A stretch of DNA of 64,000 bases, from assembly GCA_035906055.1 (NCBI GenBank), contig JAMIFV010000013.1:2535-66534 (forward strand), read 5' to 3'. The translations under genes and the position numbers were made by a program. The notes beneath the pieces are model-generated. The model saw only the letters and a program-made list of their open reading frames with translations. It was not told the origin of the DNA and made no database searches. The stretch's first letter is position 1. Every line of letters starts with the position of its first letter. Below are positions 8,630 through 35,629 of this stretch, piece after piece. The stretch is from Alphaproteobacteria bacterium. GTDB lineage: Bacteria > Pseudomonadota > Alphaproteobacteria > Rickettsiales > JABCZZ01.

Positions 8630-8789
8630 TAAATACCGCAACGGATCGAAAGCCTTCAAAGTAATACTATCATTACATTATGTGGGTGAAATTGCGGGTT
8701 AAAGCACAGTTCATTGTGCTGGTAATGTTTGGATTATAAAGTGTTAGCCTCTAATTGTGAATGCTGGCACCATGTAGGACATAGGACAT

Positions 8790-8862
8790 AGTGATGTGTA
8801 TATTGCACTTCTTGAAAACCTCCCTGTTTTCGCCTCGCTGCAGCGAAACTATGAACAGGCTC
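8790..8862. repeat. family-B repeat, copy B1. The right half is clear and the left half is degenerate.
   Basis: ...cttgaaaacctccctgttttcgcctcgctgcagcgaaactatgaacaggctc aligns with 19885-19940. Confidence 0.6.
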
Positions 8863-16349: not shown

Positions 16350-16380
16350 TCTAATCTCCACAGTGATTGGCTGTGAGCGA

Positions 16381-16475
16381 TGGATTTTGCAGCTTCCGTT
16401 GCTCACGTATCAAAACGTACGCTGCGCTACGGTTCTACAAAGATCCCTGCTCTCGCTCAGCCCAGCGAGATTCAT
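16381..16475. repeat. family-B repeat, copy B2 (diverged)
   Basis: ...gctcacgtatcaaaacgtacgctgcgctacggttctacaaagatccctgctctcgctcagcccagcgagattcat aligns with the 19850-19930 core. Confidence 0.5.
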
Positions 16476-19003: not shown

Positions 19004-19807
19004 TTAGCTTTGCATCGCTAAATAAGCGAGCAAAGCCCCGCCCAGCGCGATGCGGTACCATGCGAACAGCGTGAAGCCGTGGCGGCTGATGAAGCCCACG
19101 AACCATTTGACCACCAGAAGCGCCGTGATGAACGCGGTTATGAACCCCACGGCGATGAGGGCGAGGTCGTCGCTGCTGAATTCCTTATAGGCCTTCAGCA
19201 GGCTGTAGGCGGTGGCGGCGAACATGGTGGGGATAGCGAGGAAGAACGAAAACTCAGCGGCGGCTTTGCGCTCAACGCCCAGCACCAGCGCGCCCATGAT
19301 GGTAGCGCCGGAGCGGGAAACGCCGGGGATCATGGCGATGGCCTGACAGAAGCCGATAAGCAGGGCGCGCGTGAGCGGCAGGTCATCCAGCGAAGTGATG
19401 ACGGGCACGGGCTTCCATTTCTCAATGGCGAGGATGACGATGCCGCCGATGAACAGCGTGGTGGCGACCACCGGCACGCTGAAAAGGTGCTCGGTAATGG
19501 TTTTGTGAAACAATACGCCCAGCGCCATAGCCGGAAGGAAGGCGGCGATAATGTTAATGGCGAAGCGCTGTTCGGTCTTGCTTGAGGGTATGTTTTTTAT
19601 GGTAGTGAGCAGTTTACCGCGATAGAGCCAGCAGATGGCAAGGATGGCGCCAAGCTGGATGCTGATCTCGAACACCTTGCCCGGCGGGCCTTTGAAATCG
19701 AGAAGCGTTTCCATCATCACCAGATGCCCGGTGGAGGAAATCGGCAGAAACTCGGTAAGGCCCTCGACGAGGCCCATGATCACAGCATCTAAGAGCCTGC
19801 TCATCAT
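19004..19807 (-). CDS. uppP: undecaprenyl-diphosphate phosphatase
   Basis: VEGLTEFLPISSTGHL, ...PGVSRSG..., multi-TM protein. Confidence 0.9.
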   Translation of the reverse strand: MMSRLLDAVIMGLVEGLTEFLPISSTGHLVMMETLLDFKGPPGKVFEISIQLGAILAICWLYRGKLLTTIKNIPSSKTEQRFAINIIAAFLPAMALGVLFHKTITEHLFSVPVVATTLFIGGIVILAIEKWKPVPVITSLDDLPLTRALLIGFCQAIAMIPGVSRSGATIMGALVLGVERKAAAEFSFFLAIPTMFAATAYSLLKAYKEFSSDDLALIAVGFITAFITALLVVKWFVGFISRHGFTLFAWYRIALGGALLAYLAMQS

Positions 19808-19940
19808 ACTCTCTCTACTGCTGCCTGCTGCAAACAGTGACTTTCTGCGATCCGCTACTCATGTACTGACGTGTACACTGCATTGCGGTTCTCAAAAATC
19901 CCTGTTTTCGCTTCGCCGCAGCGAGATTATGAGCAGGCTC
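19793..19940. repeat. family-B MITE-like element, copy B3 (full length, perfect 12-bp TIR)
   Basis: The left end gagcctgctcat (19793-19804) is the reverse complement of atgagcaggctc (19929-19940). The core is ctcatgtactgacgtgtacac. Confidence 0.8.
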
Positions 19941-19948
19941 TAGCATAA

Positions 19949-22846
19949 TCAGCCCGCTGCTTTCTTGATCGCAGGTGCGCGGTCAAGCGTGAGGGCGGCG
20001 TCCAGCACCATCTTCTGCTCTTTTTCGTGCATCCTGGCGTAACCGGCGGCGGGCGACGCGGCTTCGGGGCGGCCCGCATAGCGGATACGCACGTCAGCGC
20101 GGCCTGCTTCTTCCAGCAGGTTGCCGATCTTGGGGCCCATGAAGCGGTATGCGCCCATGTTCTCCGGCTCTTCCTGGCACCATACGACCTCGGCACCCTT
20201 GTAACGCGCGAGCTCGGCGGCAATTTCCCTGGCCGGGAACGGGTAATACTGCTCGGTGCGCACGATGGCGATGTCCTTGATGCCGCGCTTCTCGCGTTCC
20301 TCGAACAGGTCATAGTAGACCTTGCCGGAGGTGAGGATAAGGCGGCGAACCTTTTTATCGTCGAGCTTCTGCGTTTCGGGAATAACGCGCTGGAAACTGG
20401 TGCCCTTGCCGAAATCAGCCAGTCTGGACACGCACAGCTTGTGGCGCAGCAGCGATTTGGGAGTCATCACGATAAGGGGTTTGCGGAACTTGCGGTGCAG
20501 CTGGCGGCGCAGCACATGGAAGAAGTTGGCAGGCGTGGTGCAGTTGACCACCTGCATGTTGTCTTCCGCGCAGAGCTGGAGATAACGTTCCAGCCTTGCG
20601 GAGGAATGTTCAGGCCCTTGCCCTTCATAGCCGTGCGGCAGCAGCATCACGAGGCCGCTCATGCGCAGCCATTTGGCCTCGCCGGAGGAAATGAACTGGT
20701 CGATGATCACCTGTGCGCCGTTGGCGAAATCGCCGAACTGCGCTTCCCACAAGGTGAGCGCCATCGGTTCGGCCAGCGAATAGCCGTATTCAAAGCCGAG
20801 GATCGCCGCTTCGGACAGCGAGCTGTCCACCACTTCGAACTGCTTTTTCGCGCCGATATTGTTCAGTGGCAGGTAGCGTTCCTCGTTGTTCTGGTCCACC
20901 AGCACCGCGTGGCGATGCGAGAAGGTGCCGCGGCCGCAATCCTGACCGGAAAGGCGCACGGGGTAGCCTTCCTTCAGCAGCGAGCCATAAGCCAGCGCTT
21001 CACCGATCGACCAGTCGAGGCCTTCGCCCGATTCCATCATGTTGCGCTTGTTATCCAGCTGGCGCAGGATCTTGCTGTTGGCGGCAAAATTCTCAGGGTG
21101 TCTGGCGAGCGCAAGGCCGATCTCTTTCAGCTTGGCGACATCCACGCCGGTGTCGGACACGGGGTGCTCGCCCTTGGGCTTTTCAAAGCCCGACCAGTGG
21201 CCTTCCAGCCAGTTGGCCTTATTGGGCTTGAAGGTTTTTGCGCCTTCATAGTCCTTTTCGAACTGGCTGCGGAACGCGGCATACATCCCGTCCACCTCTT
21301 CCTGCGGCACGATACCCGCCTTCACCAGCTCGCCGGAATAGAGCCTTGCGGGCATTTTATGCGCAGCGATGGCCTTGTACATGAGCGGCTGGGTGAACAT
21401 CGGCTCGTCGCTCTCGTTGTGGCCGTAGCGGCGATAGCAGAAGATATCCACGACCACGTCGCGCTTGAAGGTGTGGCGGAATTCGGCTGCCAGCTTGCAG
21501 GCGAAATACACGGATTCGGGATCATCGCCGTTGACGTGGAAAATGGGCGCCTGCACCATCTTGGCCACGTCGGACGGGTAGGGGGTGAAGCGCGAATAGC
21601 GCGGGGAAGTGGTGAAACCGATCTGGTTATTGACGATGATATGCACCGTGCCGCCCGTGCGGTAGCCGCGCAGTTCGGCCAGCGAAAGCGTTTCGGGCAC
21701 GAGGCCCTGACCGCAGAATGCCGCGTCGCCATGCAGTAATATGCTCATTACCTTGTCTTTGGTCTCGCGGTCGTCTTTCTGGTCCTGCTTGGCGCGCACT
21801 TTGCCCACAACAACAGGGTTCACCGCTTCCAGATGCGAAGGGTTGGAAGCCAGCGAAAGATGCATCTTCTTGCCGTTGAGCAGCGTGCGGTCGGTGGTGA
21901 CGCCCAGATGGTATTTCACGTCGCCGGAGGAATCGACCCATTCGGGGAAGTCGATATTACCCTGAAACAGGGAAAGCAGCTCCACATAGGGCTTGCCCAT
22001 GATGGTGGTGATCACGTTCATGCGGCCGCGATGCGGCATGCCGATGTTAATTTCTTCCACGCCGAGTTCGGACGAGGTGAGCAGCACGGCCTCAAGGCCT
22101 GCGATGGCGGCGTCACCGCCCTGAATCGAGAAGCGCTTGGTGCTGGCGTATTTAAGCTGGAGGAATTCTTCAAACGATTCCACCTCGACCATGGTCTTGA
22201 GGATGGACTTCTTTTCTTCGAGCGTCAGGTTGGGGCGGGTGCTGCGGTTCTCGATATGTTTCTGGATCCACGCCTTCTGCTCGGGGTACTGGATGTGCAT
22301 GAATTCCACACCGATCTTGCCGCAATAGGTGGAGCGCACGATTTTCATGATCTCGCGCAGCGTGCCATGCTGAAGGCCCAGAACGCCGTCAAGGAAGATG
22401 CTGCGGTCGAAGTCTTTTTCGGTGAAGCCGTACGTGGCGGGGTCGAGTTCGGGATGGTAAGTGGGCTGCTCAAGGCCGAGCGGATCGTAATCGGCCATGA
22501 GATGGCCGCGCACGCGGTAATTGCGGATAAGCATCAGCGCCTGCACGGTATCGCGCAGGGCCTGGTCTATGTCGGCACCTGCTCCCGGGCGAGCACCGGC
22601 AGCGACGGGTTTGCCGCCTTTTTTGTCAGGCGTGGCGCGCGGTTCAACGGATTCGTCCTCGAACCTAGACTTATTATGCGACCAGCTTGGGCGCGTGAGC
22701 GGGTTGGATGCGTTGCCCGCACCGGAGAACAGCGCCTGCCAGCTTGCATCCACACTGGAAGGATTCACCAGCCATTTTTCGTACAGCATCTCGATATAAG
22801 GTGCGTTAGCGGAAAACAGGGGGGAGTTGGCAGGTGCTTCAGTCAT
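19949..22846 (-). CDS. sucA: 2-oxoglutarate dehydrogenase E1 component
   Basis: 965-aa protein with SucA-type N-terminus (NAPYIEMLYEKWL), a TPP-binding region and ..RYGHNESDEP... Confidence 0.95.
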   Translation of the reverse strand: MTEAPANSPLFSANAPYIEMLYEKWLVNPSSVDASWQALFSGAGNASNPLTRPSWSHNKSRFEDESVEPRATPDKKGGKPVAAGARPGAGADIDQALRDTVQALMLIRNYRVRGHLMADYDPLGLEQPTYHPELDPATYGFTEKDFDRSIFLDGVLGLQHGTLREIMKIVRSTYCGKIGVEFMHIQYPEQKAWIQKHIENRSTRPNLTLEEKKSILKTMVEVESFEEFLQLKYASTKRFSIQGGDAAIAGLEAVLLTSSELGVEEINIGMPHRGRMNVITTIMGKPYVELLSLFQGNIDFPEWVDSSGDVKYHLGVTTDRTLLNGKKMHLSLASNPSHLEAVNPVVVGKVRAKQDQKDDRETKDKVMSILLHGDAAFCGQGLVPETLSLAELRGYRTGGTVHIIVNNQIGFTTSPRYSRFTPYPSDVAKMVQAPIFHVNGDDPESVYFACKLAAEFRHTFKRDVVVDIFCYRRYGHNESDEPMFTQPLMYKAIAAHKMPARLYSGELVKAGIVPQEEVDGMYAAFRSQFEKDYEGAKTFKPNKANWLEGHWSGFEKPKGEHPVSDTGVDVAKLKEIGLALARHPENFAANSKILRQLDNKRNMMESGEGLDWSIGEALAYGSLLKEGYPVRLSGQDCGRGTFSHRHAVLVDQNNEERYLPLNNIGAKKQFEVVDSSLSEAAILGFEYGYSLAEPMALTLWEAQFGDFANGAQVIIDQFISSGEAKWLRMSGLVMLLPHGYEGQGPEHSSARLERYLQLCAEDNMQVVNCTTPANFFHVLRRQLHRKFRKPLIVMTPKSLLRHKLCVSRLADFGKGTSFQRVIPETQKLDDKKVRRLILTSGKVYYDLFEEREKRGIKDIAIVRTEQYYPFPAREIAAELARYKGAEVVWCQEEPENMGAYRFMGPKIGNLLEEAGRADVRIRYAGRPEAASPAAGYARMHEKEQKMVLDAALTLDRAPAIKKAAG

Positions 22847-25671: not shown

Positions 25672-25704
25672 GCTCTAGTTGGCGAGATTATGAACAGGTT
25701 CTTA
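25672..25704. repeat. family-B terminal fragment, copy B5
   Basis: ggcgagattatgaacaggttcttag matches the right ends of B1, B3 and B6. Confidence 0.5.
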
Positions 25705-34899: not shown

Positions 34900-35484
34900 A
34901 TGATAGAAATTGTCATGACCGATGCGATGAACAGTATTTTAGCTACGCAACCCCTGCCACCTGCCACCAGACTGGTGCCTGCGGGTGAGGCTGCGCCATC
35001 GTCCGGAATCTCATTTGGCGATGTGCTCGACGCCATTAATCCGCTGCAGCACATTCCCGTCGTTTCCAGCATTTACCGCGCGGCAACCGGTACGGCTATT
35101 TCCGGCTTTGCGCAGATTGCAGGCGGAGCGCTTTTTGGCGGTCTGGCGGGTGGTCTGGTCTCCGGTGTGGTCTCTTCAGCGGTGGATGTGGCGGTGAAAG
35201 AAGCCTCGGGCAAAAATATTGCCGAACATGTGGTGTCCACGGTGGAAGATGCAACTGAAAGCAGCACAGGCACGGTTTCCGATAAAGCCGTCAAACTTGT
35301 GCCGGTAGAAGGGCTTACGCCGGAAGCGGCAATTGCTAATGCCAAGGCATCGCTGGACGAACAGGCCGCTGCGGCAGCCAGCTTTATCCTGCGTGAGGGC
35401 GGCAACGCCAGGCAGGTTGCAGGCCAGTACCAGCGTGCCCAGACACTGGATATCACTAATAAGATATTGATGAACGCCTTATAA
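34900..35484 (+). CDS. hypothetical Gly/Ala-rich protein
   Basis: ORF with ...SFGDVLDAINPLQHIPVVSSIY... and a G/A-rich hydrophobic segment. Start uncertain. Confidence 0.5.
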   Translation: MIEIVMTDAMNSILATQPLPPATRLVPAGEAAPSSGISFGDVLDAINPLQHIPVVSSIYRAATGTAISGFAQIAGGALFGGLAGGLVSGVVSSAVDVAVKEASGKNIAEHVVSTVEDATESSTGTVSDKAVKLVPVEGLTPEAAIANAKASLDEQAAAAASFILREGGNARQVAGQYQRAQTLDITNKILMNAL

Positions 35485-35486
35485 TC

Positions 35487-35629
35487 AACCTTGTTCATTA
35501 TCTCTACTATGCCTTGCTGCAAACGGCGATTTTCTGCGATTCGCTGCTCATGTACTACGTGTACATTGCGCTGTGATTCTCAAAAACCGACCGTTTTCGC
35601 TATGGCTTAGCGAGATCGTGAACAAGGTT
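35487..35629. repeat. family-B MITE-like element, copy B6 (full length, 11/12 TIR)
   Basis: aaccttgttcat (35487-35498) against the reverse complement of gtgaacaaggtt (35618-35629). The core is gctcatgtactacgtgtacat. It starts 3 nt after a stop codon. Confidence 0.8.

Follow-up and report, generated by a model that had tools for sequence, protein, structure and literature searches.

Tourist MITEs and the PIF/Harbinger elements of plants are hairpin MITEs of ~130-150 bp with a 3-bp TAA/TTA target duplication, and the transposases of PIF/Harbinger and of the IS5 family in bacteria are related. ERIC repeats, in bacteria, have been reported to act on flanking mRNAs in a manner that depends on their orientation. 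MITEPsy1 of Pseudomonas syringae pv. phaseolicola is an experimentally mobile MITE that has been attributed to the IS5 family and uses a CTAG/YTAA target, and ISPsy19, an IS5-family element, makes a 3-nt duplication and has ends that start with GAGGGTGT (PMC3189936). The CIR repeats of Caulobacter are described as CcrM-associated intergenic repeats (Chen and Shapiro 2003, as summarized in the review PMC10969869), and the Bru-RS repeats are hot spots for the IS5-family insertion sequence IS711 (PMC2266754). The words "start codon" are never used in this 2024 review of prokaryotic MITEs (PMC10969869). Here we describe family B, a new member of this already known kind of element, and one of its copies, B3, which appears to have replaced the start of the gene uppP.

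B3 lies within the window, by which we mean the whole 64,000-nucleotide stretch of DNA that was analysed, taken from a 2.36-Mb alphaproteobacterial genome. The relevant features are as follows.

19004..19807, minus strand: uppP, encoding an undecaprenyl-diphosphate phosphatase of the BacA family; 267 aa, intact
19802..19807, minus strand: ATGATG, the apparent present uppP starts (ATG 19807-19805 and ATG 19804-19802), inside B3
19793..19940, plus strand (the "top" strand of the family model): copy B3, 148 bp; 114 bits with nhmmer, the best score in the genome
19793..19804, plus strand: left terminal inverted repeat of B3, GAGCCTGCTCAT; its minus strand encodes M-S-R-L of UppP
19929..19940, plus strand: right terminal inverted repeat of B3, ATGAGCAGGCTC; 12/12 complementary to the left repeat
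19790..19792: left target duplication of B3, TAA; on the minus strand TTA (Leu, now uppP codon 6)
19941..19943: right target duplication of B3, TAG; on the minus strand CTA (Leu), one base off the left copy
19944..19946, minus strand: putative former uppP start codon, now orphaned; the sucA stop lies 2 nt before it
19815..19946, minus strand: 43-codon ORF, from the old ATG through the element, with its stop TAG 7 nt before the new ATG; no Pfam family
19856..19884, plus strand: apical hairpin of B3, CTCATGTAC-tgacgt-GTACACTGC; the part conserved across phyla
19949..22846, minus strand: sucA (2-oxoglutarate dehydrogenase E1), immediately upstream of B3 and on the same strand as uppP

Both flanking genes are readily recognized. 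UppP matches the Pfam BacA family with E = 2.3e-82 (its residues 8-257 align to positions 1-256 of the 257-position profile) and is encoded by a single-copy gene, and SucA carries the E1_dh, Transket_pyr, OxoGdeHyase_C and 2-oxogl_dehyd_N domains. On the minus strand, the junction reads TGA-TT-ATG-CTA, then the element, then TTA-GAT-GCT. We found that rejoining the uppP site yields the N-terminus M-L-D-A-V-I-M-G-L-V-E-G, comparable in length to that of relatives such as MLFIALLLGLIEG, and that the inserted 151 bp leave the old ATG out of frame. Together, these features suggest that B3 entered the Leu codon 2 (YTA) of a uppP gene that then began 2 nt after the sucA stop, in which case the empty site would have read TGATTATG-YTA-GATGCTGTG, without the 148 bp. 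This reconstructed site gave 0 matches in metagenome contigs; uppP of relatives is without the element, but the protein is only 50-60% identical and synteny differs.

After such an insertion, uppP would start at ATG(ATG) in the left end of B3, such that M-M-S-R-L-L-DAVIMG replaces M-L-DAVIMG. The original prediction had placed B3 at 19793-19940 with perfect ends and had put the annotated uppP start inside the repeat, both of which agree with our coordinates. It had described the contact as an overlap of terminal repeat and start codon; the overlap is real, and it is more than an overlap, as codon 2 is interrupted and the start apparently replaced. Its statement that all copies are intergenic holds on the ORF map, except that B3 supplies the first five uppP codons. 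The N-termini of relatives further show that MMSRL is not conserved gene sequence.

Judged by homology, ATGATG in the left end of B3 appear to be the only usable uppP starts. It could be argued that the overlap is incidental, and that the repeat ATG goes unused because translation really begins at Met11 (19777-19775), an in-frame ATG 10 codons downstream, or because uppP is dying. The new start is indeed buried in a very stable predicted hairpin (uppP-sense RNA, -79.9 kcal/mol, z = -5.25; start codons paired), and a PAP2-type phosphatase ORF elsewhere in the genome could cover the function, so that uppP is perhaps dispensable and might be undergoing decay. We nevertheless judge this explanation unlikely. 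All 11 relatives inspected have 6-12 residues before the motif G-x-x-E-G-x-T-E-F, whereas a Met11 start leaves none and would thus truncate helix 1, and the match to the BacA profile starts as early as residue 8. Met11 is not preceded by anything like a Shine-Dalgarno sequence, and the gene is full length without stops. Exactly before ATGATG, B3 alone carries a 5-nt insertion that lengthens the purine run (GTAGAGAGAGT-ATG versus the consensus GTAGAGATT-ATG), although this run matches a Shine-Dalgarno sequence only weakly.

How, then, might a start within B3 be used? The element by itself folds with a predicted -56.2 kcal/mol on the top strand and -67.7 kcal/mol on the bottom strand, and in the sucA-uppP transcript its hairpin would pair the new start with the opposite element end. 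The 43-codon frame is the only ORF passing through B3. We infer that ribosomes on this frame would melt the hairpin and then re-initiate on uppP, and hence that uppP translation probably depends on the frame through B3. A simple promoter scan in and near B3 found none, and a terminator scan at B3 likewise found none. We consider it probable that family B comprises MITEs of IS5-superfamily type, one of which, B3, sits in codon 2 of uppP, has replaced its start and is now read by coupled translation.

That B3 belongs to a repeat family is clear from the genome as a whole. Three rounds of nhmmer gave 69 matches that collapse to 44 loci, 27 of them with at least 56 bits, and blastn gave 55 matches; the possibility that no further copies exist is thereby dismissed. 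The loci, ~55-150 bp each, are dispersed over 26 contigs in gene neighbourhoods unrelated to each other, and their core identity has a median of 67% and a maximum of 91.5%. They are without coding capacity and have no transposase nearby. The terminal inverted repeats, predicted at 12 bp, are real and longer, with 18-22 bp in the consensus GA[AG]CCTGTTCATAATCTC at both ends. Flanking the ends we found a feature that the original prediction had not noticed, a 3-bp T-N-A target duplication, which is perfect in at least six copies of the genome; many old copies have a decayed duplication, and about one-third keep a perfect one. Perfect duplications occur at the following sites, two of them in relatives.

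C68:5029: TAA/TAA
C22:13893: TTA/TTA
C76:40772: TAA/TAA
C30:10946: TTA/TTA, 55-bp miniature copy
C68:11403: TCA/TCA, 55-bp miniature copy
Contig C7 of relative G024: TTA/TTA
Contig C57 of relative G129: TAA/TAA

The 55-bp copies are deletion derivatives in which ends and duplications are intact. Each whole copy is predicted to fold as one long imperfect hairpin. In other families of the order, the exact 18-mer end always occurs in pairs, ~125-145 bp apart. Besides B3, the window holds a second full copy, B6, which was correctly predicted at 35487-35629 with an 11/12 inverted repeat, and the three partial copies also proposed, all of which we recovered, one of them being nearly full.

35487..35629, plus strand: copy B6, 11/12 inverted repeat; the plus-strand gene upstream ends with TAA (35482-35484), and the copy starts 2 nt beyond it
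16358..16474, plus strand: near-full copy without the outer inverted repeat, ending TAATCTCC...GCGAGATT, between convergent genes; 62.5 bits with nhmmer (C13:18892-19008)
8789..8862, plus strand: right-half fragment, ...CTGTTTTCGCCTCGCTGCAGCGAAACTATGAACAGGCTC then TAA, located where a low-GC island ends on its right side
25681..25704, plus strand: solo right end, GGCGAGATTATGAACAGGTTC (to 25701) then TTA

Aligned together with their flanks, B3 and B6 have a mean column identity of 81% across 183 columns. Because both at first seemed to lie over minus-strand ATGs, we considered that the terminal stem might be gene-specific and sequester a start codon. This was rejected: the ends are the family consensus, and the "gene" at B6 is a spurious antisense ORF. 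From these results, family B behaves, as the original prediction had proposed in calling it MITE-like and multi-copy, as an old family of non-autonomous DNA transposons (MITEs), taken to be of the cut-and-paste type, with a full copy measuring ~145 bp. Its copies are diverged and only about one-third retain perfect duplications, and thus give no sign of current mobility. A search of a plasmid collection found nothing, and a literature search for the element's sequence strings found none.

The outer 18-22 bp would be the binding sites of a DDE transposase acting in trans, with insertion duplicating the 3-bp T-N-A target. Since TAA, TAG and TTA-TG all conform to T-N-A, copies accumulate exactly at stop codons and beside start codons. 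An IS5-superfamily source of the transposase is suggested by this target and by the style of the ends, and we take the combination of T-N-A with a GAG/GAA start as compatible with those IS5 groups that duplicate 3 bp. The genome itself houses several insertion sequences of the IS5 family whose ends are related and whose flanks contain TA; these flanks, C|TA[AG], suggest a duplication of TA and not of T-N-A. A run of 11 nt is common to the end of sub-family c, GAGCGCGTCCTGAATTAC, and one end of a resident insertion sequence, GGCTGCAGTCCTGAATTAACG. An autonomous element with matching ends, that is, a pair of the 18-mer end at the length of an insertion sequence, was found neither in this genome nor in 200 genomes of the order, and an insertion sequence in relative G024 has ends that differ from those of family B. 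Separately, one IS5-family end abuts a family B copy.

What is conserved across bacteria is the centre of the element, not its ends. In a pattern scan of genome contigs, more than 120 stretches from many phyla had the apical hairpin GCTCAYGTAC-loop-GTACRCTGCG in the middle of comparable elements whose ends differed, spanning Alpha-, Beta-, Gamma- and Deltaproteobacteria, Thermodesulfobacteria, Bacteroidota, Spirochaetia, Saccharibacteria and Paenibacillus. Perfect duplications, TGA/TGA and TAA/TAA, flank such elements in other bacteria as well. Down to its bulged C and its U/C mismatch, the apex stays the same from phylum to phylum, while the ends vary; in the alignment fold, the stem next to the apex covaries (38 C-G versus 36 U-A at the covarying pair). 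The two strands differ in predicted folding by ~10 kcal/mol; the bottom strand folds more stably in 18 of 20 elements of this genome and in 111 of 125 from elsewhere. With respect to local GC skew, 22 of 23 copies in this genome point the same way.

An invariant apex between variable ends, this strong strand asymmetry, the shared GC-skew orientation and 12 Y1_Tnp matches in the genome would all suit an HUH (Y1) enzyme of the IS200/IS605 or REP-RAYT kind that moves the element via single-stranded DNA, with the apical hairpin as a one-strand signal and the "terminal repeats" as the mere base of a hairpin. We regard this as very unlikely. Direct 3-bp T-N-A duplications, like long and perfect inverted ends, characterize DDE rather than HUH transposition, and IS200/IS605 and REP/RAYT elements, unlike family B, lack inverted repeats and target duplications. 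A Y1/HUH partner is not supported: relative G024, whose genome is estimated to be 100% complete, has fresh-looking copies with perfect ends yet no Y1_Tnp match. The GC-skew polarity is absent from three relatives (8 vs 9) and weak in Pseudomonas taeanensis (11 vs 5), so that replication-strand polarity, 22 vs 1 here, was rejected as a general rule; the value for other bacteria, 84 vs 32, comes from noisy 8-kb windows. A DDE enzyme of IS5 type is the partner that we favour.

Family B copies hug the stop and start codons of genes. Element ends abut the canonical starts of dnaG, yaaA and ugd, with AGG or GAGG 4-7 nt upstream, and this placement raises the possibility that the family may routinely rewire translation initiation in this genome. 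Copies abutting the 3' end of a gene are co-oriented with it in 78 of 94 cases (17 vs 2, 50 vs 11 and 11 vs 3). The strand present in mRNAs is the worse-folding one: the sense strand has A-C mismatches where the antisense strand has G-U pairs, and for this reason we rejected selection at the RNA level for an mRNA hairpin. The sense strand is the richer in U past the apex, and in 27 of 49 gamma-type elements five or more of the first 8 nt past it are T. For those elements, a portable terminator is possible. For this genome, we rejected a portable terminator that is tolerated in operons only in its non-terminating orientation: the two antisense-oriented copies lie in sucA-uppP and galU-ugd, but sense-oriented copies also lie in the probable operons mraY-murD and tdh-kbl (genes recognized by eye from sequence), and the scan found no terminator at B3.

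That family B is not mobile at all, and is a structured RNA or regulatory module of the host (3'-end stabilizer, attenuator or terminator) spread by recombination, is scarcely credible: co-orientation at 3' ends, the covarying stem and the U-rich sense strand favour it, but the duplications, terminal repeats, deletion derivatives with intact ends and unrelated neighbourhoods argue for transposition, the mRNA strand folds worse, the two sense copies in probable operons speak against strong termination, and no Rfam 15 covariance model reached its gathering score against the window and 15 loci from other bacteria (matches at E up to 10 were at chance level).

For the hairpin itself, strict conservation, folding asymmetry and the ~83% co-orientation with the upstream gene would suggest that one strand is read by a widely conserved factor, perhaps a host protein that binds RNA or DNA, perhaps some step of transposition. 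We tentatively raise the idea, about which we remain doubtful, that the ~30-nt apical hairpin GCUCAYGUAC-loop-GUACRCUGCG is a functional nucleic-acid module carried, or repeatedly captured, by MITEs with unrelated IS5-type ends. If so, the hairpin would be more than the tip of a palindrome. A conserved 30-nt core with differing ends and a rule of transcription orientation inverts the familiar picture, in which the ends are conserved and the centre is free, and it offers a testable handle on what MITEs need or do besides using a transposase. B3, in turn, appears to be a clean natural case in which a bacterial MITE has supplanted the start codon and ribosome-binding region of a gene and created a chimeric N-terminus; automatic annotation would mislabel or mis-start genes like the uppP that bears it.

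Among described systems, Tourist is eukaryotic and has no sequence relationship to family B. We know of no conserved apical module in Tourist, of no clear terminal repeats or target duplications in the Rickettsia palindromic elements (RPEs), and of no member of the ERIC, Correia or RUP families with a core common across phyla. RPEs and family B are both small palindromes that occur in protein-coding genes without destroying them; RPEs are internal insertions translated in frame, whereas only the terminal 15 nt of B3 are translated and the start codon is replaced (PMC10969869). ERIC, Correia and RUP elements share with family B co-transcribed long hairpins at gene ends and TA-type targets, but differ in sequence family and in presumed partners, which are of IS630 type for several (PMC10969869). 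CIR and Bru-RS1/2 (Brucella), like family B, are 100-190-bp palindromic, strictly intergenic repeats of Alphaproteobacteria that are regarded as MITE-like, and the IS711 hot spots of Bru-RS recall the three occasions on which another insertion sequence has entered family B copies. At the level of their descriptions, two differences appear: GANTC, the CcrM site, is not enriched in family B (6 of 27 copies, equal to the background of 0.29 sites per 150 bp), and the apex occurs only 4 times in a Brucella grignonensis genome, far below Bru-RS copy numbers. MITEPsy1 (PMC3189936) differs in its end sequences, in a duplication of 4 bp rather than 3 bp and in that a central hairpin common across phyla is not described for it. 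MITEPsy1 and family B are nonetheless alike in being non-coding elements of ~100-150 bp with terminal inverted repeats of roughly 18 bp and short, TA-centred duplicated targets (CTAG/YTAA there, T-N-A here), for which a transposase is presumed to act in trans, and both can alter the ends of genes.

We confirmed by reading the sequence that the window holds two full copies of family B, a ~145-bp non-coding hairpin repeat with terminal inverted repeats, as claimed; an alignment of these two (B3 and B6) spans 183 columns, flanks counted in, at a mean column identity of 81%. The partial copies of the original prediction are also real, with extents that we take here from profile and flank analysis:

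19793-19940: B3, full copy, at the uppP start
35487-35629: B6, full copy
16358-16474: nearly full copy
8789-8862: right half
25681-25701: solo right end

The right half sits exactly at the right edge of an island of low GC content that bears an integrase (1 to about 8800), and its left half appears to have been removed by the island or by rearrangement.

Across the whole genome (2.36 Mb; its 81 contigs are given C-numbers), blastn returned 55 matches to B3 and B6, and three rounds of nhmmer returned 69, which resolve into 44 loci, among them 27 that are close to full length. Since both strands match the model at most loci, the quasi-palindrome is the entire element. Family B is old; between copies the core is at most 91.5% identical (median 67%). 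By contrast, recently active insertion sequences saturate the genome; unlike the diverged family B copies, they are nearly identical to each other, and at almost every contig end it is one of them that broke the assembly. Nearly all 81 contigs (both ends of C13, whose positions 2535-66534 are the window, included) stop ~200 bp into an insertion sequence. Some 20 end types occur there, including a ~17-copy IS5-family element, IS630-like ends with ...CTATA flanks, elements with ...GGGGCTG termini, and IS200/605 (12 Y1_Tnp matches).

Alignment of 27 copies with their flanks gave the consensus (T-N-A) GA[AG]CCTGTTCATAATCTCTACTG ... apex ... CAGCGAGATTATGAACAGGTTC (T-N-A), the apex being a central hairpin. 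The terminal inverted repeats are thus a real, family-wide property, but they measure 18-22 bp in this consensus and not the predicted 12 bp. In about one third of copies the outer repeat is missing and TAATCTC...GAGATT forms the ends, and the centre is common to sub-families with other ends: GAGACTGTTTGATAAG, GAGCGCGTCCTGAATTAC and ACCTCTGTCAAAAC. The following sites carry target duplications:

C68:5029: perfect 3-bp direct repeat, TAA
C22:13893: perfect 3-bp direct repeat, TTA
C76:40772: perfect 3-bp direct repeat, TAA
C30:27253: perfect 3-bp direct repeat, TAA
C30:10946-10994 (with flanks, C30:10943-10997): 55-bp mini derivative, TTA/TTA
C68:11403-11451 (with flanks, C68:11400-11454): 55-bp mini derivative, TCA/TCA

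A 2-bp TA duplication is incompatible with TCA/TCA. The mini derivatives retain the ends and a short hairpin and nothing else, so mobility seems to need no more than the ends, and it becomes harder to see why the large centre is conserved. A mini copy in G024, another genome of the order, is flanked by TAA and TTA (locus G024:C2:11450-11720); minis are 55-64 bp overall. The identical 18-mer end is found in G024 and three further genomes of the order (G003, G129 and G050), always paired ~125-145 bp apart and again flanked by TTA/TTA and TAA/TAA.

As for a transposase partner, a Y1/HUH enzyme is unlikely, since G024 has fresh-looking copies but no Y1_Tnp match. The T-N-A duplication and the ends starting GAG or GAA fit those IS5 groups that duplicate 3 bp. 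ISPsy19, with its 3-nt duplication, is listed under the IS5 family (PMC3189936). Several IS5-family elements reside in this genome, with ends G[AG]CACTGTTAG.TAAT, GGTTCCAGTCTTGAATTAACG and GGCTGCAGTCCTGAATTAACG (the C13_R-type end is assigned to the family by sub-threshold Pfam matches only); the GGCTGCAGTCCTGAATTAACG end has 11 nt in common with MITE sub-family c. Their flanks, C/TA[AG], suggest that they duplicate TA in YTAR, unlike the T-N-A of family B. Neither this genome nor 200 genomes of the order yielded a pair of family-B ends spaced at IS length, and the sole DDE_Tnp_1 element of G024 has ends unlike those of family B.

All copies had been described as intergenic. When ORFs were mapped greedily (88.5% coding), 41 of 44 loci fell between them, and we take the three 'inside' calls as over-called ORFs. 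Most copies are only a few bases from a gene end on this map, and the flanking TAA or TAG is often the upstream gene's stop codon; B6 begins 2 nt past the TAA stop at 35482-35484. Four copies reach a start codon: that of uppP, and three with these junctions:

dnaG: ...AACAGGTTTT/ATG
yaaA: ...AAAGGTTCTT/ATG
ugd: ...CAGAGGTTTT/ATG

The dnaG and yaaA starts are canonical (their Pfam profiles begin at residues 5 and 1, respectively), and therefore the purine-rich stretch ahead of dnaG, yaaA and ugd comes from the element. A sub-family-d copy wholly occupies the galU-ugd spacer (C47:7290-7480; genes identified by eye from sequence), beginning 2 nt after the galU TAG stop, ending against the ugd ATG and putting GAGG 4 nt upstream of it.

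B3 is the instructive copy: here the element appears to have taken over the start of uppP, which encodes an undecaprenyl-diphosphate phosphatase. Pfam confirms both sucA and uppP, the latter in single copy. The minus strand reads sucA...TGA TT ATG CTA / GAGCCTGCTCAT ... element ... CAGCAG TAG AGAGAGT ATG ATG AGC AGG CTC / TTA GAT GCT GTG ATC ATG GGC. In the UppP of eleven relatives 6-12 residues precede the G-x-x-E-G-x-T-E-F motif, as they do in same-family G003 (start, MNFWVEALFLGILEG), and therefore the residues LLDAVIM are part of the protein. As predicted, the start lies in the repeat: the ATGATG within the element provides the only in-frame ATGs upstream of LLDAVIM, and the other in-frame start, a GTG 17 codons further upstream, is also within the element. 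Excising the 148-bp element and one duplication copy reconnects ATG-YTA-GAT-GCT..., encoding MLDAVIMGLVEG, comparable in length to relatives' N-termini (e.g. MLFIALLLGLIEG); CTA and TTA, the two duplication copies, are both Leu codons. With 151 bp added, a length not divisible by three, the old ATG is of no use to uppP; it opens a 43-codon frame (19815-19946) with its stop 7 nt before the new start.

The uppP-sense RNA (19770-19960) has a predicted fold of -79.9 kcal/mol (z = -5.25, no shuffle equal), in which the new start codons pair with the element's far end. A simple scan of the B3-uppP region found no sigma-70-type promoter or terminator. In the most economical model, transcription would read through from sucA, ribosomes on the 43-codon frame would open the hairpin, and uppP would be translated by termination-reinitiation. 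A 5-nt insertion unique to B3 in the 27-copy alignment changes GTAGAGATT-ATG to GTAGAGAGAGT-ATG-ATG, apparently improving the initiation region after the element had inserted. Because one PAP2 phosphatase ORF exists elsewhere in the genome, uppP may be dispensable. The G003 uppP (G003:C5:37800-39866, about 1430-1566) carries between conserved blocks an in-frame insertion of ~45 codons (...ALAGARRGDFSQAIKLDSAYEKESCSGDKASLTLGKQDGQNVRITPLLALRF...), which may be a repeat translated in frame.

Orientation of elements relative to abutting genes and local GC skew
Abutting gene, this genome: 17 co-oriented, 2 opposite (p = 7e-4)
Abutting gene, wide sample: 50 co-oriented, 11 opposite (p = 5e-7)
Abutting gene, G003/G024/G129: 11 co-oriented, 3 opposite (p = 0.057)
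Local GC skew, this genome: 22 same, 1 opposite
Local GC skew, three relatives: 8 same, 9 opposite
Local GC skew, P. taeanensis: 11 same, 5 opposite
Local GC skew, wide sample (8-kb windows): 84 same, 32 opposite

The two copies in this genome that run opposite to their abutting gene are B3 and the galU-ugd copy. The better predicted fold is on the strand complementary to the mRNA strand in 111 of 125 elements elsewhere (by ~10 kcal/mol on average) and in 18 of 20 here (~6 kcal/mol); G-U pairs are roughly twice as frequent on that strand, and of these a single one is fixed, in the apex, and the others are scattered. Given this asymmetry and the co-orientation, mRNAs usually carry the weaker hairpin, the uppP transcript being an exception (predicted -67.7 versus -56.2 kcal/mol). 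Our preferred reading is that the orientation bias reflects post-insertion selection against very stable transcript hairpins. Counting only contigs of 30 kb or more, the 'top' strand, that of the family model, is the locally G-rich strand in 22 of 23 copies, versus 54% of genes; this association is absent from the three relatives. Copies on one contig almost always have a common orientation.

We found at least 120 stretches carrying the apex pattern GCTCAYGTAC-N5-6-GTACRCTGCGYT in one genome per prokaryotic species, where about one match was expected by chance. In nearly all matches listed, the motif forms the tip of a long-hairpin element of 120-160 bp; outer ends among them vary by lineage, are IS5-type in look and have T-N-A or CTAG flanks. 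Hosts among the matches listed include Alphaproteobacteria (Mesorhizobium, Phyllobacterium, Agrobacterium rubi, Devosia, Brucella grignonensis, Sphingobium, Novosphingobium, and MAGs labelled Micavibrio, Rickettsiales and Holosporales), Gamma- and Betaproteobacteria (Pseudomonas, Luteimonas, Legionella, Photobacterium, and a MAG labelled Burkholderiales), Paenibacillus, and MAGs labelled Thermodesulfatator, Balneolales, Spirochaetia and Saccharibacteria. Copy number is low (1-16 per genome in the four genomes counted). In an alignment of 75 sequences, the Y/R pair is C-G in 38 and U-A in 36, and the four pairs beyond the fixed apex alternate between CCGG/CCGG and AAAA/UUUU types.

Both the original observation and its MITE interpretation stand: family B is a new family of an already known kind, the hairpin MITE, probably of IS5 type, within a pan-bacterial set of MITEs with a common orientation-sensitive core. 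No Rfam family matches the element. Family B does not show the hallmark of CIR (CcrM-associated intergenic repeats), association with GANTC: this motif is not enriched in family B (6 of 27 copies, equal to background). Family-B copies were hit three separate times by an insertion sequence with ends GGCATAATTAAAGAAATGGGGGGCTG (C52:194-294, C63:7938-8034 and C36:34950-34988), and at the right end of C22 an IS5-family end adjoins the TAA flank of another copy. These insertions into or at family B resemble the situation in Brucella, where IS711 uses Bru-RS repeats as hot spots (PMC2266754).
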